From Candidatus Omnitrophota bacterium (lineage in GTDB: Bacteria; Omnitrophota; Gorgyraeia; Zapsychrales; JANLHA01): a DNA stretch of 32,000 nt. Of the stretch, positions 2,205 to 30,997 are shown in pieces; the stretch's first letter is position 1; every line of letters starts with the position of its first letter. The translations under genes were made by a program, and so were the position numbers. Below the pieces are notes generated by a model, which had not been told where the DNA came from, made no database searches, and worked only from the letters and a program-made list of their open reading frames with translations. The stretch spans positions 2,340,001-2,372,000 of the forward strand of contig OY759724.1 of NCBI GenBank assembly GCA_963662715.1, in the 5' to 3' direction.

Positions 2205-2246
2205 ATTGGATATCCCAACCTTTGGCTCCCTTATTAAGGTATCATT

Positions 2247-4688: not shown

Positions 4689-4693
4689 GAAAC

Positions 4694-6235: not shown

Positions 6236-6312
6236 TTGTCATTTGTTCTGCTGTCAAAAACTCCGGGTAAAGCTTGTGGGAACAAGTTTGCTATGTTAGA
6301 ATTTTTTTAATC

Positions 6313-7887: not shown

Positions 7888-7903
7888 ACTCTTCAGGGAA
7901 ATT

Positions 7904-10644: not shown

Positions 10645-11163
10645 ATGATTGAGAACGAATTGTTATTCCTGGGGCTTCTCATGGGGGGCCCCAAACACGG
10701 GTATGAAATTAAGCGAATTATTGAGGAGGAACTGTACCCTCTGATTGGTTTGGATGTTAAATCGATCTATTATCCGCTTAAAAAAATGGAACAGCTGAAT
10801 TTATTAAAGAAAGATATCGGACGGGAAGGCCGCTGGCCGGAAAAATACGTTTACAAGATAACCCCGAAAGGGAAGAAGATATTCCACCATCTGATTACCG
10901 AAAGTTTTTTACTGATTGAGCGCCCGTATTTTAATATAGATTTATCTCTTTATTTTATTCAGTATGTTGACAAAAAGATTGCCAAAAGAAAACTGAAAGC
11001 GAGAATTTTTTTCCTGAAACGCATAAAAAGAGAGCTGGAGAAGCTGATTCAGAGAAAAGCCAGCCAGTTGTCTCCGCATCTTGATATTATCCTTGAGCAT
11101 GATCTGGACCTTGTTGACGCGGAAATCAAATCCTTTAAAAGGCTCATTGATTCTCTGCAATAG
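10645..11163 (+). CDS. PadR-family transcriptional regulator
   Basis: The product has a PadR-type wHTH (GPKHGYEIKRIIEEEL ... SIYYPLKKMEQLNLLKK ... YKITPKGKK) followed by a helical C-terminal domain. Confidence 0.8.
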   Translation: MIENELLFLGLLMGGPKHGYEIKRIIEEELYPLIGLDVKSIYYPLKKMEQLNLLKKDIGREGRWPEKYVYKITPKGKKIFHHLITESFLLIERPYFNIDLSLYFIQYVDKKIAKRKLKARIFFLKRIKRELEKLIQRKASQLSPHLDIILEHDLDLVDAEIKSFKRLIDSLQ

Positions 11164-11166: not shown

Positions 11167-11194
11167 TTGACAAATCTCCTTCTTGTATTAAAAT
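11167..11194 (+). promoter_or_regulatory. sigma70-like promoter (TTGACA-16 nt-TAAAAT) upstream of the acyl-CoA ligase gene
   Basis: TTGACA is at 11167-11172 and TAAAAT at 11189-11194, with a 16-nt spacer. The -35 begins 3 nt after the padR stop codon. Confidence 0.6.
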
Positions 11195-11317: not shown

Positions 11318-12856
11318 ATGAACGTCTACCATTTGCTCAAAGAAAAGGCTGACACTTACAGCGGGAAACCGGCTTTAATTTTTAAGGATCAGGAAATATC
11401 ATTTTCAGATTTAAGGGGACAGGTCATCCGCCTGGCATCCGGCTTAAAGAAGTTAGGCGTCGGGAAATCAGATAAAGTGGCTGTCTTTCTTCCGAATTGT
11501 CCCGAATATGTTGTCTGTTACCTGGCCTGTTTTCACCTCGGAGCCGTCGTCGTTCCTCTGGATTATATGCTAAAGGACGATGAGCTGGTCTCCTGCTTAT
11601 CTCATTCGGAAACAAAAGCGCTGTTCGCTATGCCGAAAACAGACATTTCTTTGCCGGATATCAAGTCAAAAGTCCCTTCTTTACAGCATGTCATTCTTTT
11701 TCCGGGCCAAACAGAGGCGGGAGACCGGGAGGTTCTTTGGCCGAATTTATTGGAAGGGGGGGGGGATGATTTGCCGGAGGTTCTCATCGAGGATTCGGAC
11801 CCCGCCCTTATCATGTACACATCCGGCACCACGGGGCGGCCTAAAGGGATTTTACTTAATTATAAACATTTGGAAGGCTCTCCTAAAGCCATGGAATTTT
11901 TTGTCGATTTAAACGACAGGGATATCAAGCTGGCGGCCATTCCTTTCAGCCATATCGGCGGATTCATTTATATACAGAATTCTCTTATCTTCGGAATAAC
12001 ACTTGTTATTATGGACCGTTTTAATCCCTATGAGTTCTTGAGAAATATTCAGCGTTACAAGGTCACATGTTTTCACATTGTCCCGGCCATGTATACAGCC
12101 TTGTTGACATTGAAACAAATAGATAAATTCGATCTGTCCTCTTTGCGGTGGGTCGTTGTTTTCGGGGCGCCCAGCACCCCGGAGATTATGGCGCGTTTCC
12201 AGAAATACTGCCCGAATGCAAAATTGTTGAATGGCTGGGGCATGACGGAAACATGTCCGCCGAACACCGTGACGCCTCTGGGGAGCAGCAATATTGCCAG
12301 TGTGGGGAAACCCTCGCCCGTTTCTGAAATGAAATTGATCGATGATGACGGGCAGGACGTCCCCTGCGGCCAGATCGGTGAGATTGTCATTCGCGGCTGG
12401 GTTGTTATGGACGAGTATTATAAAGACCCGGACCTGACGGCCCAGACGAAAAAGAACGGCTGGCTTTATACCGGGGATCTCGGCCGTTTTGACGAAGAGG
12501 GATATTTATATATCGTTGGCCGTAAGAAAGAAATGATAAAAGTCGGAGGACAGATTGTTTACGCTCCGGAAGTGGAAGCCGCTTTTCATAAGCATGAAGC
12601 TGTCGAGGAGACCGCGGTTATCGGTGTTTCGGATGCTTTAAGGGGCGAAGCGGTGAAAGCTTTTGTCGTATTGAAGGAGGGAATGGATATTTCGATCGAA
12701 GACCTCAGATATTTTGCCCGCCAGCATTTGGCTCATTTTAAAGTGCCTTCCGAAATTGAACTGAAGGATGTCCTGCCAAAAAACCGGATTGGAAAAATTG
12801 ATAAGGAAACATTAAGGAAAAATCACGCCGGAAGTGCGGCGCAAGATGGAAGATGA
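11318..12856 (+). CDS. AMP-dependent synthetase/ligase (acyl-CoA or acyl-ACP ligase, ANL superfamily)
   Basis: The AMP-binding motif YTSGTTGRPKG is at nt 11816-11848. Also present are GWGMTE, YTGDLGRFDEEGYLYIVGRKKEMIK and the C-terminal PKNRIGKI lysine motif. An AAGGTGAT RBS lies upstream. Confidence 0.9.
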   Translation: MNVYHLLKEKADTYSGKPALIFKDQEISFSDLRGQVIRLASGLKKLGVGKSDKVAVFLPNCPEYVVCYLACFHLGAVVVPLDYMLKDDELVSCLSHSETKALFAMPKTDISLPDIKSKVPSLQHVILFPGQTEAGDREVLWPNLLEGGGDDLPEVLIEDSDPALIMYTSGTTGRPKGILLNYKHLEGSPKAMEFFVDLNDRDIKLAAIPFSHIGGFIYIQNSLIFGITLVIMDRFNPYEFLRNIQRYKVTCFHIVPAMYTALLTLKQIDKFDLSSLRWVVVFGAPSTPEIMARFQKYCPNAKLLNGWGMTETCPPNTVTPLGSSNIASVGKPSPVSEMKLIDDDGQDVPCGQIGEIVIRGWVVMDEYYKDPDLTAQTKKNGWLYTGDLGRFDEEGYLYIVGRKKEMIKVGGQIVYAPEVEAAFHKHEAVEETAVIGVSDALRGEAVKAFVVLKEGMDISIEDLRYFARQHLAHFKVPSEIELKDVLPKNRIGKIDKETLRKNHAGSAAQDGR

Positions 12857-12916: not shown

Positions 12917-13666
12917 ATGCAGACGATGGTTAAAGAAGTCCATATGACAGGTGAAGACCTGATGGAGATGGTTCAGCTGCGCCCGGAAGACATCGGGTCT
13001 TTTGCCATTGTCCCGGGCCCCAGGGAACGCATGGACGCCTTGGTGAAGAAACTGGAGAATCCTATCAAGAATTTTTCTTTTATGGAATATACCATGTTCA
13101 CGGGGGAATACCAGGGGACGAGGGTTACGACAATCAACGGGGGCCGTTTCTCCGCTGATACAGCCATCACCACGGAAATCCTCTGCAATGCCCGGGCCAA
13201 AACCATGATCCGTATCGGAAGCTGCGGGGCGTTGAGGGAAGATATTAAAATCGGCGATTTGGTTGTGGCCGAAAGCGCTGTCCGGGGGGACGGTGTTACT
13301 CCGTATTATGTCGATCATGGTTTTGAAACAAAGGCTGATTCGGCGTTGACTCAGCAAATCACAGCCGCGGCAGAACAGTCCGGGCTAACGGTCCGCAAAG
13401 GGGCCGTCTGGTCGACCGATGCTATTTTAAGAGAAACCAAAGAGCACGTCGGCAAAGCCGTTGAGCAGGGCGCGATAGCCGTGGATATGGTGACGTCGGT
13501 TTTCCTGACTTTGTGCCAGCTTTATAATGTCCCGGCTGCGGTCATCTTGGCGGTGAGCGATAATGTCATAACCGGGGAGATGGGATTTATGAATCCTGAT
13601 TATTATATGGCTGAAGGAGCGATGATCGGCATCGCTTTGAATCTGGTTAAGAACGCAAAAAAATAA
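12917..13666 (+). CDS. nucleoside phosphorylase, PNP/UDP family 1 (hexameric DeoD/Udp-like); candidate 5'-deoxyadenosine/MTA phosphorylase
   Basis: The sequence resembles the NP-I family (GGRFSADTAITTEIL, IRIGSCGAL, GDLVVAESAVR.DG). The substrate assignment rests only on operon context with MtnA-like and aldolase genes. Confidence 0.75.
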   Translation: MQTMVKEVHMTGEDLMEMVQLRPEDIGSFAIVPGPRERMDALVKKLENPIKNFSFMEYTMFTGEYQGTRVTTINGGRFSADTAITTEILCNARAKTMIRIGSCGALREDIKIGDLVVAESAVRGDGVTPYYVDHGFETKADSALTQQITAAAEQSGLTVRKGAVWSTDAILRETKEHVGKAVEQGAIAVDMVTSVFLTLCQLYNVPAAVILAVSDNVITGEMGFMNPDYYMAEGAMIGIALNLVKNAKK

Positions 13667-13670: not shown

Positions 13671-14639
13671 ATGACAGAAACCCCTTTATTCTGGCCGGCA
13701 AAAATGAAAGGGCGCGTCCTGAATGTCCTGGACGAAACCCTTATCCCGAAAAAGACTGTCTATATTAAAGTCCGGAATACGGCTCAGGCCGTTAAGGTGA
13801 TCCGTTCCATGAAAACCAGGGCTTTCGGACAGTTTCTTGTGGTATTAAATACATTTTTGCTGGAAATCCAGGCGGCAGACAAGGCCTCTGACAGGGTTTT
13901 CATGCAGAAAATGAACAAAACAGCCCAGGCGCTTAATGCCAGCCGCCCGACGTTCCCTTTTTCCGAAGTGACGGGCATCGTCGTGCACTGGGCTGAAGAA
14001 GCGCTAAGGCACCATGAAGATCCCCGCAAAATTGTCAAAAGAAATATTCATGGATATTTGCAGGGGATCAGGCAGCAGCGTCTGGACCGGGTGGCCAGGT
14101 TGGCGAAGTTAATGAAGAACGGAGACAGCATCCTGACACATTGCAATGTCTCGGGGGAACTGGCCATGGCCGCGGCTCTTTGCAGGAAACAAGGGAAAAA
14201 AATCCAGATTTTTGCTACCGAGACCCGTCCGTATCTGCAGGGGGCCAAGTTGACGTGCTGGGAATTGAAGCGGGTCGGCATTGATGTGACATTGATCGCC
14301 GATAATGCTGTGGCATCTGTGATGGCCGACTCTTTGGTGAACAAGGTGATCGTCGGATCGGACAGGAATTGTGCCAACGGCGATTTCGCGAACAAGATCG
14401 GCACCTATCAAATCGCCGTTTGTGCCCAAGAATTCAATATCCCTTTTTATGTCCTCACGCAGCCTTCCCGGGCCGTTAAGTCAGGCCGGGATATCCCGAT
14501 TGAAATACGGGACGAGAAAGAACTGCTTTGTTATGAAGGGAAGCGTTTTGTCCCGAGAGGGGCCAAAGGTTTTTATCCGGGATTCGATGTGGTTCCTTAT
14601 CAATATGTCACAAAAACGGTAGCGATCAATGTCAAATAA
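13671..14639 (+). CDS. eIF-2B alpha/beta/delta-family sugar-phosphate isomerase (MtnA-like 5-(methylthio/deoxy)ribose-1-phosphate isomerase)
   Basis: The product has ILTHCNVSG (the catalytic Cys context of MtnA) and VIVGSDRNCANGDFANKIGTYQIAVCAQEFNIPFYVL (the catalytic Asp context plus the NKIGT motif). It starts 4 nt after the upstream gene. Confidence 0.75.
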   Translation: MTETPLFWPAKMKGRVLNVLDETLIPKKTVYIKVRNTAQAVKVIRSMKTRAFGQFLVVLNTFLLEIQAADKASDRVFMQKMNKTAQALNASRPTFPFSEVTGIVVHWAEEALRHHEDPRKIVKRNIHGYLQGIRQQRLDRVARLAKLMKNGDSILTHCNVSGELAMAAALCRKQGKKIQIFATETRPYLQGAKLTCWELKRVGIDVTLIADNAVASVMADSLVNKVIVGSDRNCANGDFANKIGTYQIAVCAQEFNIPFYVLTQPSRAVKSGRDIPIEIRDEKELLCYEGKRFVPRGAKGFYPGFDVVPYQYVTKTVAINVK

Positions 14640-15114
14640 GAAACCGCTAAAGCACATTCTGGTTCACGGACAGGCGGCCCCGGCCGTTATGGACATTTTA
14701 AAGAAAAAGAGACAGAAGACTGTTGTCATCCCCGAGGGGCGCCCTCAGCTCGAGGCGGCGAAGGTCAACAGCCGTGAGTTGTTGAAACGGAACATGACTC
14801 CGCTTGTCATCGCGGACAATATGGCCGGTTTTATGTTTTATCGAAATATGATCAAAGAAGTCTGGCTGGCTTATCAGATCGGAGACGCGCACGGGGCGCT
14901 TTGTGATATCGGGGCCTTGATATATGCGGTCCTGGCCAAGAAACACCGAGTCCCGGTTCTGGCTTATCCCGCGGTCGAACAGAAAAGATTTATTGGAAAA
15001 CCCAAAGAGATCTGTTGCTTCTGCGGCCGGCGCGTGGCGCCTCCGGCTGTCAAGGGATATGTCCCTCTTCTGGAGTGGGTCCCGGGAAACTATATAGGAA
15101 AAATACATGAATAA
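14629..15114 (+). CDS. short eIF-2B/MtnA-like Rossmann-domain protein (half-size paralog)
   Basis: The 161-aa product resembles only the C-terminal nucleotide-fold half of MtnA/eIF2B (VVIPEGRPQLEAAKV..EL, TPLVIADNMAGFMF, VLAKKHRVPVLAYP). It overlaps the upstream stop by 11 nt and the downstream start by 8 nt, which indicates translational coupling. Confidence 0.55.
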   Translation: MSNKKPLKHILVHGQAAPAVMDILKKKRQKTVVIPEGRPQLEAAKVNSRELLKRNMTPLVIADNMAGFMFYRNMIKEVWLAYQIGDAHGALCDIGALIYAVLAKKHRVPVLAYPAVEQKRFIGKPKEICCFCGRRVAPPAVKGYVPLLEWVPGNYIGKIHE

Positions 15115-16135
15115 TGAACTTAAAGAGACAATCAAGAAAAATATGATCGCCGTCGGCCGGCTGCTTTGGGAGAAAGAATTGGCGACGGGCCTGAACGGGA
15201 ATATGAGTGTTAAGGTTGACGATCAGCATATCCTTCTGACGGGCAGTAAAACTTGCCTGGGGCTGCTGCACGATCAGGACATCCTGTTGATGAATTTGGA
15301 CGGACAGGTGATTGATGAGGGCATGATTTCCACGGAAGCGCTGCTGCATACGGATATTTATAAGAATGTCCCTTCCGTGAAATCCGTTCTGCATACGCAC
15401 ACGACGTTTGCAAACGCATATTTCTCGGAGCTGGATGTCCTGTCTCCGAGAAATTTTGAATCCAAACTGTATCTGGGAGAAGTCAGGTCTATTCCTCAGG
15501 ATACGCCGTCAGTGACGGATACCGCTCCGGTTCTCTCGGCCCTTAAAGAGAATAACGTCCTTGTCTTGAAAAATCATGGCATTGTTGCCGCCGGTGAAGA
15601 CCTTTTCGATTGTTTTCTTCTTGTCCAATGCCTTGAGGAGGCAGTGAAGGTGGAGTGTTTCAGCCGGTTGTTTAAGCCAAAGGCCCCTTTGAACAACACC
15701 GGTCTTTCTGCCGGATCAAAAAAAACGGAAGAACCCGGGGCGGCTGCTCCGGGGAAAAAATATAAATTGTTTTCTCAGGAGCAAATCGACCAGATCGTTC
15801 AGGTTGTCAACGCTGACAAACAGCTGAAAGATATGGGGGAAAAGACTCAGATGACCATGGAACTGGCCGTTAAATTGAACGAAACCGACCGGGTGTACAG
15901 TTTTCAGTTTGAAAACGGCCGGATTGTTCGGGTCGGCCATAATACGGACGCGGAATTTTTAATTTCGGCTTCGGCCAAAGTCTGGCTCGCCGTATTCAAC
16001 CGCCAAATAGATCCTTTTGTGGCAACAACGCAGAAAAAGATGCACCTGAAGGGCGATTATGCCCGGATTTCGAAATGGTATGCTCCCTGTAGCCGGATTT
16101 TCGAATTATGGCAGCAAGTTCCGGTTGAAGGATGA
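15107..16135 (+). CDS. class II aldolase/adducin-domain protein fused to a C-terminal SCP2-like domain
   Basis: The N-terminal ~190 aa carry class II aldolase motifs (GLNGNMSVK, LLTGSKT, STEALLHTDIY, SVLHTHTTFA zinc histidines, LKNHGIVAAGEDL). A Gly/Ala/Pro/Lys linker follows. The C-terminal ~120 aa look like an SCP2 sterol-carrier fold (AEFLISASAKVWLAVFNRQIDPFVATTQKKMHLKGD). Confidence 0.7.
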   Translation: MNNELKETIKKNMIAVGRLLWEKELATGLNGNMSVKVDDQHILLTGSKTCLGLLHDQDILLMNLDGQVIDEGMISTEALLHTDIYKNVPSVKSVLHTHTTFANAYFSELDVLSPRNFESKLYLGEVRSIPQDTPSVTDTAPVLSALKENNVLVLKNHGIVAAGEDLFDCFLLVQCLEEAVKVECFSRLFKPKAPLNNTGLSAGSKKTEEPGAAAPGKKYKLFSQEQIDQIVQVVNADKQLKDMGEKTQMTMELAVKLNETDRVYSFQFENGRIVRVGHNTDAEFLISASAKVWLAVFNRQIDPFVATTQKKMHLKGDYARISKWYAPCSRIFELWQQVPVEG

Positions 16136-16145: not shown

Positions 16146-17633
16146 ATGGACAGATATGATTTATTCATTAACGGGACGTTAAGGCCGGCACAGGAAGACC
16201 GGTATTTTGAGGCCATGAACCCTTCCGCCGGAGAAGCGTTCGCACAGGTGGCAGATGCCTCCTGCGGGGACATGGCTGAAGCGATTGACGCCGCACGGCA
16301 GTGTTTTTTATCCATGGCCTGGGCCGGACTGACGATCAGGGAAAGAGGTCAGTTTTTATCGCGTGTCGCACAGCTCATCCGGGATAATGCCAAACTTTTG
16401 GCCGAATTGGAAAGTTCCGATACCGGCAAAACGATTAAGCAGACGACATTTATTGACGTCCCCACGTGTGCGGACACTTTTGAATATTTTGCCGGAGTGA
16501 GTGATCAGTTGAAAGGAACGATCAACCCTGTCCCGGCCCCTGTACGCAGCCTGACCGATAGAGAGCCTGTGGGTGTCGTCGCCGCCATTATCCCCTGGAA
16601 CTATCCTCTTATCATGTTCGCCTGGAAGGTGGCGCCTGCTTTGATCGCCGGGAATTCCGTTATTTTTAAGCCGTCCCGCCAGGCAAGCGTTTCCATTTCA
16701 AAACTCGCCCAAATTATCCGGCAGGCCGGCCTGCCGGACGGGGCGCTTAATGTTGTCACAAGCAGCCGGCATGAGGTGGTTCAGAAACTCATTGAAAGCC
16801 CGGAAGTTCATATGATCAGTTTTACCGGGGGGACGGAAACGGGCCGCGATGTCATGCGCCGCGCCGCACAGACGACAAAAAAATTAAATTTGGAACTCGG
16901 GGGGAAATCTCCCAACATCGTGTTCGCGGATTGTGATATCGACGCCGCTGTCGGGGGGACGCTGTCAGCCATTTTTATGAATCAGGGACAGATGTGTACC
17001 GCCGGATCCCGGTTGCTTTTGGAGGATGATATTTATGACGATTTTTTAAAAAGACTGGTTCAGAAGGTGCAGCAGTTTAAGATCGGCCATAGTATCAATT
17101 ACGATACGGATTTTGGCCCTCTTATTAGCGCGCAGCACCGGGAGCAGGTTTTGTCCTACGTCCGAAAAGGGGTAAACGAAGGCGCTACGCTTCTTTGCGG
17201 CGGCAAGATACCGGAAGATCTCCCTTCGGATATAGCGAAAGGATATTATTTGGAGCCTACGATCTTCACGGACGTTACTCCTGAGATGACGATTGCCCGG
17301 GAAGAAATATTCGGCCCGGTTCTGTCGGTCATGAGATTCTCCTCTCCGGAAGAAGCTCTGGAGCTCGCGAATGATACTCCTTACGGTCTGGCTGCCTGTG
17401 TTTGGACCAGGAGCATGGATAAAGCTCAGCAGGTTTCCAAACAGCTGCAGTGCGGAATCGTGTGGGTTAACACCTACGGCGGTTTTTACAACGAGGCTTC
17501 CTTCGGCGGTTACAAACAGAGCGGGTTTGGCCGTTCCCTGGGAACCGAGGGCCTTTTGGAATATACGCAGTCAAAACATATCTGTATTGACGCGACACCT
17601 GGAGGGCGTTCTCTTGTCTCGAGCTGGTTTTGA
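16146..17633 (+). CDS. NAD(P)+-dependent aldehyde dehydrogenase (non-acylating ALDH superfamily)
   Basis: Present are the ELGGKSP glutamate motif, the FMNQGQMCTAGSR catalytic cysteine motif, PWNYPL and EEIFGPV. The product is 495 aa. Confidence 0.92.
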   Translation: MDRYDLFINGTLRPAQEDRYFEAMNPSAGEAFAQVADASCGDMAEAIDAARQCFLSMAWAGLTIRERGQFLSRVAQLIRDNAKLLAELESSDTGKTIKQTTFIDVPTCADTFEYFAGVSDQLKGTINPVPAPVRSLTDREPVGVVAAIIPWNYPLIMFAWKVAPALIAGNSVIFKPSRQASVSISKLAQIIRQAGLPDGALNVVTSSRHEVVQKLIESPEVHMISFTGGTETGRDVMRRAAQTTKKLNLELGGKSPNIVFADCDIDAAVGGTLSAIFMNQGQMCTAGSRLLLEDDIYDDFLKRLVQKVQQFKIGHSINYDTDFGPLISAQHREQVLSYVRKGVNEGATLLCGGKIPEDLPSDIAKGYYLEPTIFTDVTPEMTIAREEIFGPVLSVMRFSSPEEALELANDTPYGLAACVWTRSMDKAQQVSKQLQCGIVWVNTYGGFYNEASFGGYKQSGFGRSLGTEGLLEYTQSKHICIDATPGGRSLVSSWF

Positions 17634-17770: not shown

Positions 17771-19243
17771 ATGAAAGTTTTATTTGTTACGCCTCCGATG
17801 GGTTCCTGGGCTACCCACGGAGACCATAAAGCTCCTAATCAGTATTATGCCCAGGTTGCGGCCTATCTGCGGGACAAAGCCGTGGCCGATGTCCAGGTCC
17901 TGGATGCTAAGGCGTTGGATCTTTCTTATGATCAGATGATGGCTGAAATTGCGAAGAGCCAGCCCCGTTTATGTGTCTTTGGGGACCTGCTGCATTCTAC
18001 CGGAGGATTGTCTGTCATCTGGCATTTCCTGGAAACAGCCAGAAGAATTAAGGACATCCTGCCTGAGACCAAAATCCTTATGGGCGGTCTTTGGTTTTCC
18101 GCCTATGCCACCGAAACGCTGGAACAGAACCCCTGGGTGGACTTCATTGCCATGGGAGAGGGTGAGCTCACAATCACAGACCTGATCCTGGCATTGGAAA
18201 ACCAGAAGACGGACCTGTCGGATATCCCCGGCCTGGTCTCGCGGACGGCGGACGGAAAGATCGAGATGGGGCCGCACCGGGACTTGATCCCCAGCCTGGA
18301 TGATTTGCCGATGCCGGCGTATGACCTTTTCCCGATGGAAAAATATGTCGGCCACACATACTGGAAACCGTTTGCCGAACTCCTGACTTCCCGCGGCTGC
18401 CCCGGGGCATGCACCTTTTGTTATCAGTGGAGTCTCTACGATAAGCGCAACAGTCAAAAGGATTATATTTCCTGGCGGGGAAAATCCCATAGCCGGATTT
18501 TAGACGAGTTGGATTATCTTGAAAAAGAATACGGCGTCAAGGTTGTCGTCATACAGGATGATGCTTTTAACGTAGACAAGGATAATGTGCGGCGTTTTTG
18601 TGAGTCGAAAATTGAGCGGGGCAACAGAATTCAATGGGTTTGTTTAGGCCGCGCCGATGACTGGTTGGCCCACAAGGATATTTTACCCCTGATGAACAAA
18701 GCGGGTTTGTTTATGGGGCTGGTGGGCGTTGAAGTTGAGAGTGACGAGCAGCTGGCCAAACAGGGCAAGGGCGTAACGCTGCAGCAGATCAAGGATACTG
18801 TGCAGGCGTTGCGGGCGGCGAACATCGCCAGCGTCGGGACGGTGTTAATCGGGTTAGAGGATGATGATGAAGCGACCATCAAGGAAAGATTCCGGGTTGC
18901 CGATGATATTGATCCCGATATCATGGCTTTGGATTACGTGACGCCTGTGCCGGGTTCTTTATTGTGGAATAATGCGATTAAAAAAGGCTGGCTGACCCCC
19001 CGGGATATTCAGCTGCGGGAATGGGATTTTCATCACCCGGTTATCCCAACTCAATATCTTTCTGTTGCTGATGTCGGCCGGCTGGGGGCCTGGTGTATGC
19101 GCGAGTTTTATTCAAAGCCGGAGCGCATTCACCGGATTATGGACAGTGATTATGACATGCTTGTTAAATTGTGTGTGAAAGATTTTATGAGCAATATCGC
19201 CAAATTTGAAAAAGCTTCCGTTGGTGAAGGCACATATGTTTAA
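17771..19243 (+). CDS. B12-binding-domain radical SAM enzyme (class B rSAM)
   Basis: The N-terminal ~140 aa look like a cobalamin-binding Rossmann-like region. The CxxxCxxC cluster motif (SRGCPGACTFCY) is at nt 18398-18421. The overall 490-aa architecture is typical of class B rSAM proteins. Confidence 0.85.
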   Translation: MKVLFVTPPMGSWATHGDHKAPNQYYAQVAAYLRDKAVADVQVLDAKALDLSYDQMMAEIAKSQPRLCVFGDLLHSTGGLSVIWHFLETARRIKDILPETKILMGGLWFSAYATETLEQNPWVDFIAMGEGELTITDLILALENQKTDLSDIPGLVSRTADGKIEMGPHRDLIPSLDDLPMPAYDLFPMEKYVGHTYWKPFAELLTSRGCPGACTFCYQWSLYDKRNSQKDYISWRGKSHSRILDELDYLEKEYGVKVVVIQDDAFNVDKDNVRRFCESKIERGNRIQWVCLGRADDWLAHKDILPLMNKAGLFMGLVGVEVESDEQLAKQGKGVTLQQIKDTVQALRAANIASVGTVLIGLEDDDEATIKERFRVADDIDPDIMALDYVTPVPGSLLWNNAIKKGWLTPRDIQLREWDFHHPVIPTQYLSVADVGRLGAWCMREFYSKPERIHRIMDSDYDMLVKLCVKDFMSNIAKFEKASVGEGTYV

Positions 19244-19296
19244 TTTTAAAATGGCCCGGCGTTAGAATCCGTGGTCTGAGGACAGGACGGTGATCT

Positions 19297-19596
19297 ATGG
19301 TTGATGAACAGCTCCAGATGGAATGGGAGAAAAGTGCGTTAACAAAATATAAAAATATGATTCAAAGGATCCCCTTGTTTCACCGGGAAATTGCGGATCA
19401 GGTCGTTACGAAAAAAGCGACGCAGAATGCTCAGAAAAGAGGCTCGGAGATTGTTGAGGAATGTGATATCCTCAGGGCTTTTTTTTCGGAAGTTCCCATG
19501 ACATTTTACGGGCTTATGATCCGGCTCTTTGAAGAGGTTGGCTTTGATTATAATAAATATGATCCCAGCCATAATGGAAAGACGGAGACAACCTAG
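19297..19596 (+). CDS. small protein resembling the PCP_red domain (C-terminal domain of protochlorophyllide reductase subunit B)
   Basis: The segment MEWEKSALTKYKNMIQRIPLFHREIADQVVTKKATQNAQKRGSEIVE fits the W..A...L..IP.F.R.......E..A...G pattern of PF08369 as I recall it. This assignment needs an HMM check. Confidence 0.45.
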   Translation: MVDEQLQMEWEKSALTKYKNMIQRIPLFHREIADQVVTKKATQNAQKRGSEIVEECDILRAFFSEVPMTFYGLMIRLFEEVGFDYNKYDPSHNGKTETT

Positions 19597-19706: not shown

Positions 19707-20177
19707 GTGGCCCAAAAATCAGAATTGCGAGTGAGTCATCATTTTGTTTTTATCGAAGTCCCCATCGGCCTTGTGACTTCGGAATCTTTATTGTGGGGAG
19801 AGGCCTCGTGGTGGCCGAAGCCTTGTCCTTGGCATACGCAGAAGCTGACAGAAGGGGACATTGCTATCGGGACGCAATATCATCATTCTCTAGGCGGAGG
19901 CCTGGCTCCGCGCTGGGTTTCGGAAATAACCCAGTATGAGCCGAGACGGGAAATCGAACGCACATTTAAAGGGGATTTCTTTGTCGGGTATGAAGTCATT
20001 CAGGTGGGGGAGAGAGCGAACGGGACACGGATTGATTATGAAATGCATTATCAGGTCAAAGGTTTGTATAAAAAGATATTGTGGGAAATCTATTACAGAA
20101 AGAAATATGAAGCTAAGCTTGAAATGATCCTGGCAACATTAAAAGAGTATGTCGTGAAGCAGTATTATAAGGATTAA
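19707..20177 (+). CDS. SRPBCC (START/Bet v1-like) superfamily protein
   Basis: The ORF has a GTG start with a GAGGAA RBS upstream. The size (156 aa) and the alternating beta-strand pattern with a long C-terminal helix are typical of SRPBCC proteins. The family call is tentative. Confidence 0.5.
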   Translation: MAQKSELRVSHHFVFIEVPIGLVTSESLLWGEASWWPKPCPWHTQKLTEGDIAIGTQYHHSLGGGLAPRWVSEITQYEPRREIERTFKGDFFVGYEVIQVGERANGTRIDYEMHYQVKGLYKKILWEIYYRKKYEAKLEMILATLKEYVVKQYYKD

Positions 20178-20200
20178 CCTTGTCTTCGGGAGAAAGTCAG

Positions 20201-21232
20201 ATGAAAATTGCTGTTATTGGAGCAGGGGCGATTGGTTCGGTTGTTGCGGGCTTCTTGACCAAAGCCGGGGCAGACGTTCTTTTGGTGGGGCGCCCGGAAC
20301 AGGTCTCGGCCATTCAAGAAAACGGCTTATGTATCAGAAAGCCTGACGGGGATGAAGCCGTCGGTGTCCGCGTCGCGGACAAACTGGACCGGACGTATGA
20401 TTTGGTTATTTTTACCGTGAAAAGCCAGGATATGGAGCAGGCTTATCAAGATAACGCGGATTTTCTGGAAGATAGCCTGGTGCTAACAACACAGAACGGG
20501 ATCCAGGGAGATAATCTTCTCAGCACTCATTTTGCTCCGGAAAGGATGTACAGCAGTATCGTCATGTTCGGGGCGACATACACTGTCCCGGGGGAGGTTG
20601 TCCTCAATTTCCCGGGGGATTGGATTATCGGAAAACCTTACACTGTCAATGATGCTAAGATCGAAGAAATAGCGTATGTTCTAAAGAGAGCTTTTCCTGT
20701 TGAGATATCGACAAATATTATGGGGATGAAGTGGCTGAAGCTTTTCGTGAATTTTAATAATTGTATCCCGGCGTGCATTGGTCAGCCCATGCAGGAAGCT
20801 TTTTCGGATATCGACTTGTGTAAGCTGAGTGTCCTGTTGTTGCGGGAGGGTCTTGATATCATCAACGCCGCCGGAATAGAATTGGTTTCGTTGCCGAATT
20901 TTCCTGTTGAGAGAATCCTGGGGCTTGCCCGTATGCCTGTCAACGAAGCGGCGGGTATCCTTCAGAAAACATTGACCGGTTTGAGCAAAGAGCCTGTTTA
21001 TGGCTCGATATTACAGAGTATTAAACGGGGCAAACCCAGTGAAATTGATTTTATTAACGGGGAAATCGACCAGGTGGCAGCCAGTATCCGAAGGAAGGCG
21101 CCTTTAAACAGGAAAATAGTCCGGTTCGTTCATCAGGTGGAGGGGACGGGGCAATTTTTTACCCCGGAAGAAATCAAGTCGGAATTCCCATTAACGGAAG
21201 GTCTTCTTGAAGAAACAGGGCAAGGCCGGTGA
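20201..21232 (+). CDS. ketopantoate reductase (ApbA/PanE) family NAD(P)H-dependent 2-oxoacid/ketone reductase
   Basis: MKIAVIGAGAIGSVVAGFL is the Rossmann motif. GMKWLKLFVNFNN and SILQSIKRGKPSEIDFINGEI correspond to the PanE signatures K..K...N and S.LQD...G..TEID.ING. The ATG at 20201 has a GGGAGAA RBS, whereas the ORF track starts at a TTG at 20180. Confidence 0.8.
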   Translation: MKIAVIGAGAIGSVVAGFLTKAGADVLLVGRPEQVSAIQENGLCIRKPDGDEAVGVRVADKLDRTYDLVIFTVKSQDMEQAYQDNADFLEDSLVLTTQNGIQGDNLLSTHFAPERMYSSIVMFGATYTVPGEVVLNFPGDWIIGKPYTVNDAKIEEIAYVLKRAFPVEISTNIMGMKWLKLFVNFNNCIPACIGQPMQEAFSDIDLCKLSVLLLREGLDIINAAGIELVSLPNFPVERILGLARMPVNEAAGILQKTLTGLSKEPVYGSILQSIKRGKPSEIDFINGEIDQVAASIRRKAPLNRKIVRFVHQVEGTGQFFTPEEIKSEFPLTEGLLEETGQGR

Positions 21233-21312: not shown

Positions 21313-22572
21313 ATGTCTAGACGAGTCGTTATAACAGGGGTGGGTCTCGTTGCCCCCAACGGGGTCGGAAATGACGAGTGTTTTCACGCCATGGTGAACG
21401 GAATTTCCGGAGTGAAACGGGTCACCGAATTTGATGTGTCTCAATTTAACACGAAGATCGCTGCGCAAGTCAAAAGGTTTGACCCCATATCTTTGGGGCT
21501 GACCCGGGAGGAGGCCATTCGCATGGACCTTTACGTGCAGTTTGCCGTGATCGCCGCGCGCATGGCGGTCGAGGACGCCAAACTGGATTTGAGCCGGGTT
21601 GATAAAGAACGCATGGGTGTTTCGCTGGCCAATGCCATCTGCGGAACGAAATATATGGAGGAAGAATTTGCCCTTGTGACGGACAGCGGTAAAAATCCTA
21701 TTGATCCGAGTCTGGTCCGGAAAGACCTTTACGATGCCTCGATGTTCAACACGCCTTCCAGTGAGATCACGGCCAAATACGGGCTGCAGGGCATCTGCAA
21801 TACCATATCGACAGGATGTACGGCAGGGACGGATTCCGTCGGATTTTCTTATGAGGCGATTCAGTCGGGGGAAGCCGATATCATGATTACCGGGGCTAGT
21901 GAAGCCCCGATTACACCCATAACCTTTGGGGCTTTTGATTGTATTAATGTCCTCTCCACGAGGAATGATGAGCCCGAAAAAGCTTCCCGGCCGTTTGATA
22001 AAAGCAGGAACGGTTTTATCATATCGGAAGGGGCGGGTCTGCTTGTCGTTGAAGAACTTGAGCACGCGTTAAAACGCGGCGCAAGAATTTATTGTGAAAT
22101 TATCGGTTACGGCACGACGAACAATGCGTATCACATGACGGATCTTCCCCCGGAAGGGGACGCCATGGCGGACAGCATTGTTCTGGCGATCAAAAGCGCC
22201 GGGATTAACCCGGAACAAATTGATTATATCAATGCGCATGGCTCTTCCACCCGGCAAAATGACGTTTTTGAAACGAACGCTTATAAGATGGCTTTAGGCG
22301 ACGCCGTTTACAATATCCCGATCAGTTCCCTGAAGTCCATGATCGGGCATCCGCTGGCGGGAGCCAACGGTATCGAACTTGCCGTCGGCGCTCTTATCTT
22401 CGAGCGCAATATCCTGCCTCCGACGATCAACCAGGAAGAAGCTGACCCGGAGTGTGATTTGGATTATATCCCGAATGTGGCCCGGGAGAAAAAGATCGAT
22501 ATCATGTTAAAAACAAGCAGCGGTTTTTCCGGCATTCACTCAGCCATGGTTTTGAAGCGGTATGCCGGGTGA
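21313..22572 (+). CDS. beta-ketoacyl synthase, catalytically competent subunit (KS-alpha / FabF-like)
   Basis: The active-site motif ISTGCTAGTDSVG places Cys169 at nt 21817-21819. Both catalytic histidines are present (INAHGSST and KSMIGHPLAGANG). The TGCT.G.D context resembles type II PKS KS-alpha. Confidence 0.9.
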   Translation: MSRRVVITGVGLVAPNGVGNDECFHAMVNGISGVKRVTEFDVSQFNTKIAAQVKRFDPISLGLTREEAIRMDLYVQFAVIAARMAVEDAKLDLSRVDKERMGVSLANAICGTKYMEEEFALVTDSGKNPIDPSLVRKDLYDASMFNTPSSEITAKYGLQGICNTISTGCTAGTDSVGFSYEAIQSGEADIMITGASEAPITPITFGAFDCINVLSTRNDEPEKASRPFDKSRNGFIISEGAGLLVVEELEHALKRGARIYCEIIGYGTTNNAYHMTDLPPEGDAMADSIVLAIKSAGINPEQIDYINAHGSSTRQNDVFETNAYKMALGDAVYNIPISSLKSMIGHPLAGANGIELAVGALIFERNILPPTINQEEADPECDLDYIPNVAREKKIDIMLKTSSGFSGIHSAMVLKRYAG

Positions 22573-22610: not shown

Positions 22611-23843
22611 ATGGACAGAATAGCAATTACAGGTGTGGGGGTCGTTTCCCCGAGCGGTATCGACAAACGGAAATTTTGGTCTAATGTCAAAAAAGGCCGT
22701 TCAGCCGTCAAGGTGATCGATAGATTTGATGCCTCACGGTATCCTTCTCATCTCGCCGGGCAAGTTCATGAGCTGGATGCCTACAGCAAGGTGTCTTCCC
22801 GGCTGCTGAAAAAAATCGATTTGTTCGCCCATATGGCGCTGGTCGCTTCCGAACTGGCCATAGAAGACGCTGGCATCGATATGCAGAGCGAAAATTTAAA
22901 GCGGGCGGGAATTTTTATGGGCAATGCGATCGGAGGATGGCTTTATGCGGAAACGGAGTTGCGGGATCTTTACCTGGAAGGACGGGAGGGGGTAAGCCCT
23001 TTTATGGCCTCCGCGTGGTTCCCTGCGGCTCCGCAAGGACAGATATCGATTCATTACGGTATAAAAGGCTATAGCAAAACCATCGTTGCCGACCGGGCGA
23101 GTTCTTTGATGGCCATCGGGTACGGGGCAAAAAATCTTAAGAAAGGCCACAATGATTTTATCCTCGCCGGAGGGATGGAAGCCCCGGTGACGCCTTATGC
23201 TTTGTTGTGCTGCAACACCTCAGGTATGCTTACGAAGAACAACAAAGCCGCCGACACAGCCTATAAGCCTTTTGATAAAAACCGGGACGGGTTTGCCATC
23301 GCTGAGGGGGCAGGGTGCCTTATCCTGGAACCTTTGGAAAGAGTCCGGGGCCGGCAGACATCTGTCCTGGGCTTTGTGGCGGGCTTTGGCACCACCACGG
23401 ACGGGGTAAGCCGCATTGATCCTGCCGATGACGGCCTGCAGTTATCCCGGGCTATCCGCCTGGCCCTGGAGGATGCGCAATGTGCCCCGGAAGACATTGA
23501 TTATATCTGTGCCGACGGGGACGGAACGGTTCTGGGGGACCGGACGGAAACCATGGCCATTAAACAGGTCTTTAACAGCCATGCCAAGAAAATCCCGGTC
23601 ACCGCTCCCAAATCAGTTTTCGGTAATATGCTTGGAGCTTCCGGGGCTGTTGATGTTATAACAACTCTTTTAGCCATGGAGTCCGGCATTGTCCCTCCGA
23701 CGATTAATTATCAAACTCCGGATCCGGAATGTGATCTGGATTATTGTCCCAACAAATGCCAGGCCAAAGAGATCAACAAGGCTTTGGTGCTCAATCGCGG
23801 CCGCGGCGGGATTAACGTGGCGTTGGTCTTGGCCAAGAAATAA
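22611..23843 (+). CDS. beta-ketoacyl synthase-like partner subunit lacking the catalytic triad (KS-beta / chain-length-factor-like)
   Basis: The product aligns without gaps to the upstream KS around the active site. The Cys position is Arg162 (IVADRASSLMAIG, codon at nt 23094-23096). The first His is replaced by Asp (ICADGDGT) and the second by Asn (KSVFGNMLGASGA). Confidence 0.85.
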   Translation: MDRIAITGVGVVSPSGIDKRKFWSNVKKGRSAVKVIDRFDASRYPSHLAGQVHELDAYSKVSSRLLKKIDLFAHMALVASELAIEDAGIDMQSENLKRAGIFMGNAIGGWLYAETELRDLYLEGREGVSPFMASAWFPAAPQGQISIHYGIKGYSKTIVADRASSLMAIGYGAKNLKKGHNDFILAGGMEAPVTPYALLCCNTSGMLTKNNKAADTAYKPFDKNRDGFAIAEGAGCLILEPLERVRGRQTSVLGFVAGFGTTTDGVSRIDPADDGLQLSRAIRLALEDAQCAPEDIDYICADGDGTVLGDRTETMAIKQVFNSHAKKIPVTAPKSVFGNMLGASGAVDVITTLLAMESGIVPPTINYQTPDPECDLDYCPNKCQAKEINKALVLNRGRGGINVALVLAKK

Positions 23844-23906: not shown

Positions 23907-24146
23907 GTGTGTGTTGAGGCAAAAGTGAAAGAAGTATTCCAGAAGGTGCTGGATGTCAGCCCTGACGAGATTAAGCCGGATGAGAGCCTGGCGGCCTCTT
24001 TGGGGGTGGATTCCACGGAGTTGGTCGAGATATCCGTCGGGATAAAAAAAGAACTGAATGTCCCTTTGGGCGACGGAGAGCTTAAAAAAACATTCACGTT
24101 TAATGAAATCGTTGAGATTGTGAAGTCAAAGGCTCCGGCGGACTGA
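23907..24146 (+). CDS. acyl carrier protein
   Basis: The 79-aa product has the LGVDSTELVE phosphopantetheine-attachment motif (Ser36 codon at nt 24012-24014). It has a GTG start with a GGAGG RBS 7 nt upstream. Confidence 0.85.
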   Translation: MCVEAKVKEVFQKVLDVSPDEIKPDESLAASLGVDSTELVEISVGIKKELNVPLGDGELKKTFTFNEIVEIVKSKAPAD

Positions 24147-24213: not shown

Positions 24214-25068
24214 ATGCCCGGCAGAAATGCCGAAGGAGAAAGGCGACGGATTGGAATTATGCAGATCATTGATCTTAGTCTTCCCATAGACGACACCTTG
24301 CAGGAGACCCATGCCGCCAAGATCGACCGCATCAGCCATGCGGACGGTGTTGAGCATTTCAACTGGGTGGTTATGAAGAACCGTCCCGGCGGACAGGAAA
24401 AGTTTGAACAGGGGGAAAGAGTTGCTGCTGCCGGGGAAATCCCTGATGGGGAAATGCTGTCTTTGGAAATAGTCCATGCCTCTGTTCATATGGGGTCGCA
24501 TGTGGACGCCCCGTTTCATTACGGCAGCTGTTGTGAAGGCCGGCCGGCCCGGACCATTGAAGATGTCCCTCTGGAATGGTGTTACGGAGACGGGGTGATC
24601 TTGGATTTCACTCATATGCATTATCCGGATGCTATCCACCGAACCGATATCGAGCAGGCTTTAAAGAAGCTGTCTTATAAGCTTAAGCCCATGGACATCG
24701 TTCTTATTTATACCGGTGGGGATGCCCTCCTGGGGACTCCGGATTATGTGAATAAGTATGTCGGCATGATGCCTGACGCTGTCGAGTTTATTCTGGACCA
24801 GGGCGTCAAAATGCTGGGCATTGACACCATTGGGCTTGACCGCCCGTGTTTTGAAATGTTTCAGGAATTTTTGACGACAAAAGACAAATCAAAACTTTGG
24901 CCGTCGCATTTCCTCGGCCGCCGGAGGGAATTTTGTCATATGGAGCGGCTTGGCAATCTGGGGGCTGTTCCCCGTTCTTTTGGCTTTAAAGTGGCGTGTT
25001 TCCCGGTGCGGGTTAAAAATGCCGGAGCCGGATGGGCCAGAGTCGTTGCGATGCTGGAGGATCGCTAG
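24214..25068 (+). CDS. cyclase-family protein (PF04199 putative cyclase / kynurenine-formamidase-like metallohydrolase fold)
   Basis: The HMGSHVDAPFH motif at nt 24487-24519 matches the family signature HxGTHxDxPxH. The start could instead be the ATG at 24259 (MQIIDLSLPI), which resembles the usual family N-terminus. Confidence 0.8.
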   Translation: MPGRNAEGERRRIGIMQIIDLSLPIDDTLQETHAAKIDRISHADGVEHFNWVVMKNRPGGQEKFEQGERVAAAGEIPDGEMLSLEIVHASVHMGSHVDAPFHYGSCCEGRPARTIEDVPLEWCYGDGVILDFTHMHYPDAIHRTDIEQALKKLSYKLKPMDIVLIYTGGDALLGTPDYVNKYVGMMPDAVEFILDQGVKMLGIDTIGLDRPCFEMFQEFLTTKDKSKLWPSHFLGRRREFCHMERLGNLGAVPRSFGFKVACFPVRVKNAGAGWARVVAMLEDR

Positions 25069-25241: not shown

Positions 25242-25700
25242 ATGGGACATACACGGAATTCGATATTGATTAATGCGCCCTATGATCTTGTTTATGACAC
25301 TTCCAATGATATTGAAAGATGGACCGAACTGTTTGGAGACGAATATATTAAAGCAGAGGTGTTGGAGCGAAGCGGTCTTGAGATAACATTCCGTCTTACC
25401 GATGATGAAAATAAATCATGGGTTTCCAAACGATGGCTTCATAAAGAGCAGTTTTTTGCCTTTGCATCCCGCCACGAACCGATGTTCCCTTTTAAGTATA
25501 TGAAAATCATTTGGTTGTATCATGTTACGGCAGAAGGGACTCTTATGACCTGGATTCAGGATTTTGAAATGGACCCGGGGTTCACCGCGTATTCGGAAGA
25601 GCAGATAGAAGGGTTTATTAATAAGCATTCCAAGGATAACATGAAGATTTTTAAGGATGTTATTGAAAAGGAAGCTGAGCAATTGGCCTCTCAATCATAA
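25242..25700 (+). CDS. SRPBCC polyketide cyclase/dehydrase-like protein (ARO/CYC-like)
   Basis: The N-terminus HTRNSILINAPYDLVYDTSNDIERWTELF matches the typical Polyketide_cyc/cyc2 start (h.e.si.i.aP...vy....d.e.Wpe.f). The product is 152 aa, and a GGGGAGG RBS lies upstream. Confidence 0.65.
   Translation: MGHTRNSILINAPYDLVYDTSNDIERWTELFGDEYIKAEVLERSGLEITFRLTDDENKSWVSKRWLHKEQFFAFASRHEPMFPFKYMKIIWLYHVTAEGTLMTWIQDFEMDPGFTAYSEEQIEGFINKHSKDNMKIFKDVIEKEAEQLASQS

Positions 25701-29404: not shown

Positions 29405-30997
<1,593 letters not shown>

Follow-up and report, generated by a model that had tools for sequence, protein, structure and literature searches.

A class B radical SAM enzyme paired with a PCP_red-like small protein in a polyketide synthase-type operon of Candidatus Omnitrophota

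The known non-methylating members of class B, the cobalamin-domain radical S-adenosylmethionine (SAM) enzymes, all form or rearrange rings, and one of them, BchE, converts a methylene group to a ketone with water-derived oxygen, closes a ring and uses several SAM molecules per turnover (10.64898/2026.04.29.721654). Other systems that bear comparison with the locus described here are HpnJ, which forms the cyclitol ether of hopanoids; OxsB, which requires a separately encoded partner, OxsA; the PCP_red domain of dark-operative protochlorophyllide oxidoreductase (DPOR); the type II aromatic polyketide synthases (PKS); the ladderane gene Cluster I of anammox bacteria; and the UbiU/UbiV/UbiT proteins of O2-independent ubiquinone hydroxylation. 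Our subject is a stretch of 32,000 nucleotides from a Candidatus Omnitrophota bacterium (GenBank assembly GCA_963662715.1, contig OY759724.1, positions 2,340,001 to 2,372,000; hereafter the window, whose own numbering is used throughout). In the window, a class B radical SAM enzyme of 490 amino acids (aa) is followed by a helical protein of 99 aa in the middle of an 18.6-kb, co-directional, PKS-type operon, and this operon is conserved phylum-wide in Candidatus Omnitrophota. It is likely that the two proteins constitute a dedicated enzyme-plus-adaptor module which tailors the product of the PKS operon.

The pairing is apparent from co-occurrence. Relatives of the radical SAM enzyme are encoded by at least 592 stretches in GTDB species representatives; the survey covered the best 80 of these loci, onto which we mapped 20 cluster proteins of the window for synteny. 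Nearly all of the 80 are labelled Omnitrophota (labels being the names of metagenome-assembled genome [MAG] records), the others being a placeholder 'uncultured Planctomycetales', three unclassified bacterial MAGs and one 'Syntrophaceae' MAG. Pairing was scored in the 72 loci with enough downstream sequence, after correction of two loci in which the genes overlap, and upstream genes were scored where upstream sequence sufficed. The small gene lies directly after the radical SAM gene in 63 of these 72 loci, and in 63 of 64 once a clade of paralogs is set aside, which bears out the co-occurrence that an earlier note on this DNA had proposed to examine. Measured from the radical SAM stop codon, the tblastn match to the small protein mostly begins 6 to 124 nt downstream. 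Eight of the nine exceptions belong to the paralog clade (L020, L022, L023, L025-L027, L029 and L030) and the other is a rearranged locus, L051; L028, the ninth clade member, could not be scored for want of downstream sequence. The pairing is also kept in metagenome contigs whose small protein is only 49% or 36% identical to that of the window, and it extends down to identities of 51% for the radical SAM enzyme and 36% for the small protein. No convincing terminator was found between the two genes.

In a few loci another gene stands between the pair. One divergent lineage carries an 85-aa GIY-YIG gene of the homing-endonuclease type at this point (L007:1179-1436 and L008:645-902), and a subclade carries a gene for a membrane SPFH/Band_7 protein of 311 to 343 aa (PF01145, 91 bits; L024:8915-9850, L032:11401-12432 and also L033), which hints at a membrane association of the module. 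The paralog clade itself (L020, L022, L023 and L025-L030) is monophyletic and 66 to 69% identical to the window enzyme. Upstream of its radical SAM genes (e.g., L026:10001-11473) lie genes for a multicopper-oxidase-like protein, NnrS and an Alginate_exp outer-membrane protein; downstream are a 262-aa radical SAM protein, NrdD, NrdG, a PAS kinase/LuxR pair and MoaA. For six of the nine paralog loci, the source genome contributes a copy of the full operon to the 80 loci as well (L026 and L081, e.g., are on one contig).

Direct translation gave the two open reading frames (ORFs), the position of the CPGACTFC motif and the 53-nt gap between the genes as the earlier note had them; within the gap, the second ATG is preceded by GGA..GG, which resembles a Shine-Dalgarno sequence. 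By domain architecture the larger protein is a class B enzyme, predicted to bind both cobalamin and a [4Fe-4S] cluster. The B12-binding family PF02310 matches residues 28-138 (47 bits; Pfam cutoff, 32) and the Radical_SAM family PF04055 matches residues 206-368 (60 bits; cutoff, 29.5), and the cluster cysteines C210, C214 and C217 are invariant in an alignment of 12 homologs (A3). An AlphaFold2 (AF2) model (predicted local distance difference test [pLDDT], 72.5; predicted template modeling score [pTM], 0.78) lies nearest to the class B-type structures AprD4, OxsB, TsrM, MgmA, TokK and CysS (E 1e-18 to 1e-12), and the earlier assignment to class B thus stands. The top two of these neighbors, AprD4 and then OxsB, are non-methylases; as a discriminator between methylases and non-methylases the ranking is uninformative, since AprD4 and OxsB are just marginally ahead of TsrM, TokK and CysS. 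Four further cysteines (C277, C291, C442 and C468) are invariant in the Omnitrophota family, of which C277 alone aligns with a BchE cysteine. An auxiliary Fe-S cluster held by these four residues was considered and is unsupported, as there is no recognizable cluster-binding motif and only C277 is aligned with BchE.

The best curated match of the enzyme is BchE (TIGR02026, 203.7 bits; cutoff, 481), which agrees with the proposal that it is BchE-related, and the second is HpnJ (TIGR03471, 153.2 bits; cutoff, 577.6). Models of methylases match at 127 bits (P-methyltransferase) and 121 bits (HpnR), and the ladderane-associated B12 radical SAM model TIGR04072 matches at 74 bits (cutoff, 360). No curated equivalog cutoff of these NCBIfam-type models is reached, which places the enzyme outside the well-characterized subgroups. 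Neither the window nor the related loci that were examined contain bch or chl genes, whereas in Skermanella bchE adjoins bchJ, and no hpn genes were found near the radical SAM gene among the window proteins and mapped loci. As the cutoffs are missed and these contexts are absent, the enzyme belongs by sequence to an uncharacterized family that is neither BchE, HpnJ nor the ladderane radical SAM enzyme. Its homologs are 60 to 86% identical, and their named sources are nearly all Omnitrophota MAGs. Neither a cobalamin riboswitch nor another RNA element was detected upstream of the gene at Rfam gathering thresholds.

With BchE the window enzyme has in common the class B architecture (a B12 domain and a CX3CX2C barrel), the top curated rank and a reportedly anaerobic host; the substrate of BchE is large, planar and hydrophobic. 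Unlike BchE, it stands in no photosynthesis gene context, is only 26 to 27% identical to annotated BchE (25.7 to 27.1% for annotated bchE genes) and lacks the C-terminal extension of BchE. That extension is unlike the small protein: the idea that the latter is a split-off BchE C terminus was discarded because the extensions of the Skermanella (548 aa) and Pseudanabaena BchE proteins are not matched by the small-protein family profile. HpnJ (26% identical) and OxsB resemble the window enzyme as cobalamin radical SAM enzymes that form or rearrange rings without methylating, and the requirement of OxsB, the second-closest structural neighbor, for OxsA is a precedent for a two-protein system; they differ in that the window locus has no hopanoid or nucleoside context. 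OxsA, as far as is known to us, belongs to the HD-domain enzymes and has no relation to PCP_red.

The small protein is supported as a distant relative of the PCP_red fold and a member of the DUF2621/PCP_red superfamily by convergent weak-to-moderate signals, not by one strong statistic. Its top Pfam match, PF11084 (DUF2621), scores 20.5 bits, below the gathering cutoff of 27.7, and there is no NCBIfam match; many homologs of 60 to 80% identity bear a precomputed PF11084 assignment. Searches gave 168 homologs (E to 1e-41 for non-self matches), nearly all of about 85 to 104 aa, and those with a source name are Omnitrophota MAGs. An exhaustive hidden Markov model search with the family profile reached 139 representatives, of which 75 match PF11084 (best, 6.7e-21) and 36 match PF08369, PCP_red (best, 2e-11). 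The AF2 model (pLDDT, 84) has four main helices, and among 350,542 PDB chains its best two Foldseek matches are 2L09, Nostoc asr4154 (probability, 0.96; 28% identity; a modest E of 0.24), and 2KRU, the PCP_red domain of Chlorobium BchB (probability, 0.91; a modest E of 0.35). The same two entries rank second and third of 177,635 PDB sequences searched with a broader 89-sequence profile (A4); no solved BchB or ChlB chain was matched by the Omnitrophota family profile (A1) in the PDB sequences. The resemblance to PCP_red suggested by the earlier note therefore stands at the level of family profiles and fold (Foldseek), and it does not for the single sequence.

The likeness to the PCP_red domains, both the C-terminal domain of BchB/ChlB of DPOR and the standalone asr4154, lies in the helical fold of about the first 60 residues and in a W..A...IP.F.R..A motif. 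The small protein differs in having about 30 extra C-terminal residues, a family-specific segment with a conserved EVP..F..M..L...GFDY, in relatives that Pfam files under DUF2621, and in having a radical SAM enzyme and not a nitrogenase-like reductase as its partner. Twenty positions are invariant in an alignment of 36 homologs, many of them aromatic or hydrophobic; they include W10, P26, F28, H29, R30, R48, E65-V66-P67, F70, M74, L77, G82-F83 and Y85.

The domain company that this superfamily keeps bears on its role. DUF2621/PCP_red-like domains are fused to the C terminus of Peptidase_U32 proteins (10 representatives, some also with SCP2), to the N terminus of PTase_Orf2, an ABBA aromatic prenyltransferase (8 representatives), and to radical SAM proteins (6 representatives; all 3 that were examined are radical SAM-SPASM proteins nearest to AhbD/NirJ), and in one case the domain lies between a LuxC reductase and a radical SAM protein. 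What these partners share is that they act on planar aromatic or lipidic substrates, for the most part by oxygen-independent chemistry. In DPOR, the C-terminal region of BchB helps to enclose protochlorophyllide. The fusion partners and the DPOR analogy together suggest that the small protein may be a cofactor-less adaptor which binds the substrate or caps the active site, so that of the two roles offered by the earlier note, substrate presentation and electron transfer, the first is retained; adjacency and the natural fusions suggest that the two proteins interact physically.

The hydroxylases UbiU and UbiV, which work without O2, are members of the U32 family (PMC6747719). The UbiU/UbiV/UbiT system is similar to the window locus in that the small-protein domain is fused to Peptidase_U32 and co-occurs with SCP2 of the UbiT type, and that an SCP2 domain is encoded in the window operon, the shared theme being the tailoring of hydrophobic aromatic rings without oxygen. 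It differs in that the window has no U32 gene and that the U32 fusions reach no NCBIfam UbiU or UbiV assignment; domain co-occurrence is the sole link. A metagenomic cluster (L091:1-9449) encodes a radical SAM-SPASM protein, a 762-aa PTase_Orf2-radical SAM-SPASM fusion, a HemN-like radical SAM protein and three tandem Peptidase_U32 proteins, each with a DUF2621/PCP_red-like domain (two by precomputed Pfam assignment, the third by profile scan). It looks like an oxygen-independent pathway for tailoring prenyl-aromatic, quinone-like compounds, seemingly an undescribed one. In another locus, L092, a fusion of the domain to a radical SAM protein follows SCP2, FAD_binding_4 and CCG-domain genes.

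The operon around the pair points, by its gene content, to an aromatic or at least cyclized polyketide made by a reportedly anaerobic host; all functions in it are assigned at the family level (Table 1). This reading follows from the affinity of the first ketosynthase (KS1), the inactive second one (KS2), two cyclase families, a ketoreductase and an enzyme like LigW and ACMSD. The best PDB matches of KS1 are the actinorhodin KS-alpha (1TQY_A, 387 bits) and an anthraquinone-type enzyme of Photorhabdus (6SMO_B, 385 bits), with FabF at no more than 366 bits. A minimal type II PKS set is thus present, i.e., a KS-alpha with Cys/His/His, an adjacent dead partner and a discrete acyl carrier protein (ACP); KS2 lacks the active-site Gln of a canonical chain length factor (CLF) and is closer to FabF than to the actinorhodin CLF. 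Among the operon proteins no O2-dependent oxygenase family was matched in Pfam. As in the actinorhodin and Photorhabdus AntDEF systems, the order KS, dead KS, ACP is followed by cyclases, a ketoreductase and a decarboxylase-like enzyme, whereas the Arg of KS2 in place of the CLF Gln, the class B radical SAM enzyme, the nucleoside-salvage-like block and the reportedly anaerobic host set the window apart from these aromatic PKS. Anammox Cluster I (amxFabF2/amxFabFmut, amxACP and B12 radical SAM enzymes) is likewise found in anaerobes of the PVC superphylum and combines the logic of a KS/dead-KS heterodimer with a dedicated ACP and cobalamin radical SAM enzymes. There, however, the mutant KS lies upstream and its mutated Cys is Val or Thr, where the window has Arg, and the cluster has amxFabZ, cyclases not being among the genes in the preprint's description. 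We have accordingly rejected the identification of the window operon with the ladderane cluster, given the 74 bits to TIGR04072, the different gene order and mutant residues, and the presence of cyclases instead of FabZ.

Table 1. Conserved and variable genes of the operon, with the motif of the radical SAM enzyme (window coordinates)
Feature	Position	Strand	Basis or remark
PadR-family regulator, first conserved gene	10645-11163	+	PF03551; kept in most loci with enough upstream sequence
FadD-like AMP-forming acyl-CoA/ACP ligase	11318-12856	+	PF00501, PF13193; NF004837 463 bits, cutoff 476
Nucleoside phosphorylase/nucleosidase family (PNP_UDP_1)	12917-13666	+	PF01048
MtnA-like (5-substituted ribose-1-phosphate) isomerase	13671-14639	+	PF01008; TIGR00524 201.5 bits, cutoff 185.9
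Short IF-2B-like protein, 161 aa	14629-15114	+	Partial PF01008; in all full-length loci
Class II aldolase/MtnB-family + SCP2 lipid-binding fusion	15107-16135	+	PF00596, PF02036; FucA-like, below cutoff
NAD(P)-dependent aldehyde dehydrogenase	16146-17633	+	PF00171 580 bits; betaine-/phenylacetaldehyde-dehydrogenase-like, below cutoff
Class B (cobalamin-domain) radical SAM enzyme, uncharacterized BchE/HpnJ-related family, 490 aa	17771-19243	+	PF02310, PF04055
CX3CX2C radical SAM cluster motif CPGACTFC, residues 210-217	18398-18421	+	Direct translation
Helical helper, DUF2621/PCP_red superfamily, 99 aa	19297-19596	+	36-homolog alignment, AF2, Foldseek
Variable SRPBCC-like ORF, 156 aa, GTG start	19707-20177	+	Weak PF10604
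ApbA/ketopantoate-reductase-family NAD(P)H oxidoreductase	20180-21232	+	PF02558, PF08546; TIGR00745 160 bits, cutoff 141
KS1, ketosynthase with intact Cys/His/His (KS-alpha-like)	21313-22572	+	PF00109, PF02801
KS2, catalytically dead CLF-like partner	22611-23843	+	Cys->Arg, His->Asp, His->Asn versus KS1
ACP, GVDS phosphopantetheine site	23907-24146	+	PF00550
'Putative cyclase' family, metal-dependent	24214-25068	+	PF04199, 102 bits; distant to kynurenine formamidase, isatin hydrolase
SRPBCC polyketide cyclase/aromatase family	25242-25700	+	PF03364, PF10604
Major facilitator superfamily (MFS) transporter	25808-26962	+	PF07690; in most but not all loci
Short-chain dehydrogenase/reductase (SDR) ketoreductase	27044-27814	+	PF00106, PF08659; 3-ketoacyl-ACP-reductase-like, below cutoff
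PC4-like protein, 77 aa, GTG start	27902-28135	+	PF02229 48 bits; 65-83% identity across loci
Amidohydrolase_2, non-oxidative aromatic-acid-decarboxylase-like	28323-29237	+	PF04909; nearest PDB LigW 5-carboxyvanillate decarboxylase, ACMSD

There is little in the literature with which to compare this operon. One catalogue lists KS-CLF pairs for Candidatus Omnitrophica at the phylum level (PMC10132072), and generic counts of biosynthetic gene clusters in Omnitrophota include antiSMASH-type calls of 'ladderane' (PMC9902471); on Omnitrophota polyketides we found catalogue-level mentions only. The only published mention of Omnitrophica KS-CLF that we found being an entry in a phylum list, the view that a radical SAM enzyme and small protein with KS, CLF and ACP are not recognizable from described pathways is upheld. 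Neither of the two outcomes that the earlier note had named as fatal to its claim was observed. Likewise, no published paper on DUF2621 was found, nor a functional study of the DUF2621/PCP_red superfamily outside DPOR.

How might the pair act? The radical SAM enzyme and its helper probably modify the aromatic product of the operon without oxygen. The small protein would serve as an adaptor or a lid, either by binding the substrate, which would be hydrophobic and planar, or by docking on the radical SAM enzyme, much as the C-terminal PCP_red domain of BchB assists in enclosing protochlorophyllide. Cleavage of SAM would yield a 5'-deoxyadenosyl radical that attacks the cyclized polyketide at an activated carbon, benzylic or alpha-keto, and removes a hydrogen there, and with the help of cobalamin an oxygen-independent oxidation and/or C-C ring closure of the BchE type could follow, standing in for the O2-dependent oxygenases of aerobic type II PKS pathways. 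The phosphorylase, the MtnA-like isomerase and the class II aldolase may dispose of the resulting 5'-deoxyadenosine. Genes of these three families are encoded together and in synteny, so that at the family level the gene set of a dihydroxyacetone phosphate (DHAP) shunt is present, and the phosphorylase/isomerase/aldolase logic of 5'-deoxyadenosine salvage by this shunt has been described (PMC6079011, PMC10986504). The reading that we favor, in which a fixed radical SAM-adaptor module tailors a type II PKS-like aromatic product by BchE-type chemistry, is as a whole tentative, and we give it slightly less than an even chance. An oxidation and/or ring closure of the BchE type on the polyketide is possible, leaning toward doubtful; it is favored over other chemistries because the operon bears an aromatic-PKS signature, because no O2-dependent tailoring enzyme is seen among its proteins and because of the ranking of the nearest families.

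Several observations weigh against this reading. The paralog clade has neither the small protein nor any PKS genes, showing that the radical SAM scaffold can work without a helper. BchE is active in vitro without a partner protein (10.64898/2026.04.29.721654), and the analogy to BchE would therefore predict no helper. The window enzyme is only 26 to 30% identical to annotated BchE and HpnJ, its scores lie far below the cutoffs of both families, and methylases are among the structural neighbors of its model at near-equal E values. For the small protein alone, the match to PF08369 is 12.9 bits (E = 0.12; cutoff, 32.5), and the E values of 2L09 and 2KRU with the A4 profile are just 0.24 to 0.36. 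With respect to the product, KS2 scores higher against FabF (315 bits) than against the actinorhodin CLF (1TQY_B, 248 bits) and has Arg in place of the CLF-typical Gln; because of these two features, the operon may make not a classical aromatic polyketide but an acyl compound that is reduced or short.

The main rival reading, which is conceivable though rather unlikely in our estimation, is that the radical SAM enzyme is a conventional cobalamin-dependent C-methyltransferase of the TokK, CysS, GenK or HpnR type, acting on an unactivated or aromatic carbon in the polyketide or its ACP-bound precursor with the small protein as substrate adaptor. Methylation is the chemistry of most class B enzymes (10.64898/2026.04.29.721654), which further counts against an oxidation; the P-methyltransferase and HpnR models match the enzyme as well, and TsrM, MgmA, TokK and CysS are close structural neighbors, the substrate of CysS being pantetheinylated. 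However, the top curated families, BchE and HpnJ, are non-methylases, some versions of the operon already have a separate class I SAM methyltransferase, and there is no positive sign of methyl transfer. A different view of the upstream block is that it supplies a precursor: a 5'-substituted adenosine, either methylthioadenosine (MTA) or an adenosyl adduct from a radical SAM reaction, would undergo phosphorolysis, isomerization, aldol cleavage by the aldolase-SCP2 fusion, oxidation by the aldehyde dehydrogenase and activation by the FadD-like ligase to give an acid that primes the KS and ACP, and the pair would make or tailor this unit. These five genes are syntenic with the PKS genes across the 80 loci wherever upstream sequence sufficed, and the block is absent around the paralog radical SAM genes, a linkage that plain housekeeping salvage would not require. 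The lipid-binding SCP2 domain on the aldolase, the resemblance of the ligase to FadD (463 bits) rather than to acetate-CoA ligase (271 bits) and the weak likeness of the phosphorylase to HpnG, which processes adenosylhopane, fit as well. We nevertheless judge this scheme improbable: each of its steps comes from a family-level annotation, and the DHAP shunt for 5'-deoxyadenosine or MTA explains the first three genes without new chemistry (PMC6079011, PMC10986504). The known adenosylating radical SAM enzymes, MqnE and HpnH, are to our knowledge not class B, which also counts against precursor supply.

That the pair acts on something other than a polyketide, such as a tetrapyrrole or a membrane lipid, and owes its place in the operon to co-regulation only, is more improbable again. 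PCP_red relatives do accompany tetrapyrrole enzymes (BchB and the AhbD/NirJ-like radical SAM fusions), the closest named family, BchE, acts on a porphyrin, and the close paralog occurs outside any PKS context, near NnrS, NrdDG and MoaA; yet the two genes are adjacent in 63 of 64 loci, lie amid PKS-related genes with no internal terminator, and have no tetrapyrrole biosynthesis genes with them in the window. Least credible of all, to the point of being nearly dismissible, is an electron-transfer role for the small protein as a ferredoxin-like reductant of the radical SAM cluster or the cobalamin, the second role offered by the earlier note. The general need of radical SAM enzymes for a low-potential reductant is all that speaks for it. 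No cysteine is conserved among the 36 homologs, in which H29 is the sole invariant histidine, no redox-cofactor domain is matched in Pfam, and the fold is the all-helical one of PCP_red; an Fe-S or other electron-carrier function is unlikely in view of the missing cysteines and cofactor motifs. Returning to the tailoring module that we favor, one may extend it, as an improbable long shot, to a phylum-wide, oxygen-independent Omnitrophota route to a polyketide-derived aromatic compound, possibly a quinone-like cofactor or lipid. Such a route would start from an acid that the phosphorylase, isomerase, aldolase-SCP2, aldehyde dehydrogenase and ligase cut from a SAM-derived 5'-substituted ribose and pass to the KS, dead KS and ACP, the radical SAM enzyme and its PCP_red-type cap would install a water-derived carbonyl or a ring, and the domain would be a general adaptor for planar substrates which also serves U32 hydroxylases, ABBA prenyltransferases and AhbD/NirJ-like radical SAM enzymes.

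The earlier note had placed the pair at the head of the cluster. This is not the case, as the conserved co-directional block begins about 6.5 kb upstream of the radical SAM gene and the pair is mid-operon. The conserved order is PadR, ligase, phosphorylase, isomerase, IF-2B-like protein, aldolase-SCP2, aldehyde dehydrogenase, radical SAM enzyme and small protein, followed by (SRPBCC-like), ApbA-like, KS, dead KS, ACP, PF04199, SRPBCC, (MFS), SDR, PC4-like and Amidohydro_2, where parentheses mark variable members. The best promoter-like site (11167-11194, 11 of 12 matches) lies between the PadR and ligase genes, and the long co-directional operon extends over about 11.3 to 29.2 kb of the window. 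The ligase is syntenic at 56 to 70% identity, the sole exception being L043 (46%), and the phosphorylase has weak matches, below cutoff, to MTA/S-adenosylhomocysteine nucleosidase, DeoD and HpnG. The short IF-2B-like protein, a truncated paralog of the isomerase, matches just positions 109-213 of the 280 in the profile; its gene shares 11 nt with the end of the gene for the isomerase, and the protein is 38 to 54% identical across full operons, one divergent locus excepted. Homologs of the variable SRPBCC-like ORF were found in L007, L009, L010, L013, L021, L035, L036 and others and are absent elsewhere. The extra class I SAM methyltransferase gene lies between the MFS and SDR genes (L002:18545-19348 and L003:9476-10279) and is not in the window. 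PC4, a transcriptional coactivator p15-like protein with a single-stranded DNA-binding fold, is an odd part for a biosynthetic cluster; its gene lies between the SDR and decarboxylase-like genes.

The remainder of the window holds other genes. Positions 39-6235 are occupied by a row of three glycogen/alpha-glucan genes unrelated to the pair, for a CBM48/alpha-amylase-family enzyme, a GH57+DUF3536 protein and a GH77 4-alpha-glucanotransferase. Four ORFs without a Pfam match precede the PadR gene (6274-6870, 7838-9073, 9573-10001 and 10100-10552); L001 and L002 have unannotated ORFs of similar size in the same positions, next to a CBS-domain protein. An rRNA operon starts 168 nt past the last cluster gene, with the 16S rRNA at 29405-30995, tRNA-Ile(GAT) at 31217-31293, tRNA-Ala(TGC) at 31306-31381 and the 5' end of the 23S rRNA from 31696, cut by the window end.

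In summary, the analysis adds to the earlier note a phylum-wide operon, its block of phosphorylase, isomerase, aldolase, aldehyde dehydrogenase and ligase genes, and a paralog clade without helper or PKS genes. What is distinctive for a cobalamin radical SAM enzyme in a PKS-type operon is the dedicated partner from the PCP_red superfamily, the phylum-wide conservation and the nucleoside-processing block. Non-methylating cobalamin radical SAM enzymes are few (BchE, HpnJ, OxsB, PbsB and proposed lipid-ring enzymes) and mechanistically poorly understood; the large and highly conserved family of the window enzyme, with its fixed partner, is a new system for their study and may prove more tractable. 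The DUF2621/PCP_red superfamily gains a testable role as an adaptor that recurs with oxygen-independent enzymes of aromatic substrates. At least several hundred Omnitrophota genomes at the species level have the operon, which in the window adjoins an rRNA operon, and its product is for these reasons likely to matter to the physiology of this uncultured, reportedly anaerobic phylum and not to be a sporadic secondary metabolite. The operon could make it testable by what route anaerobes, in the absence of O2, finish or oxygenate an aromatic polyketide.

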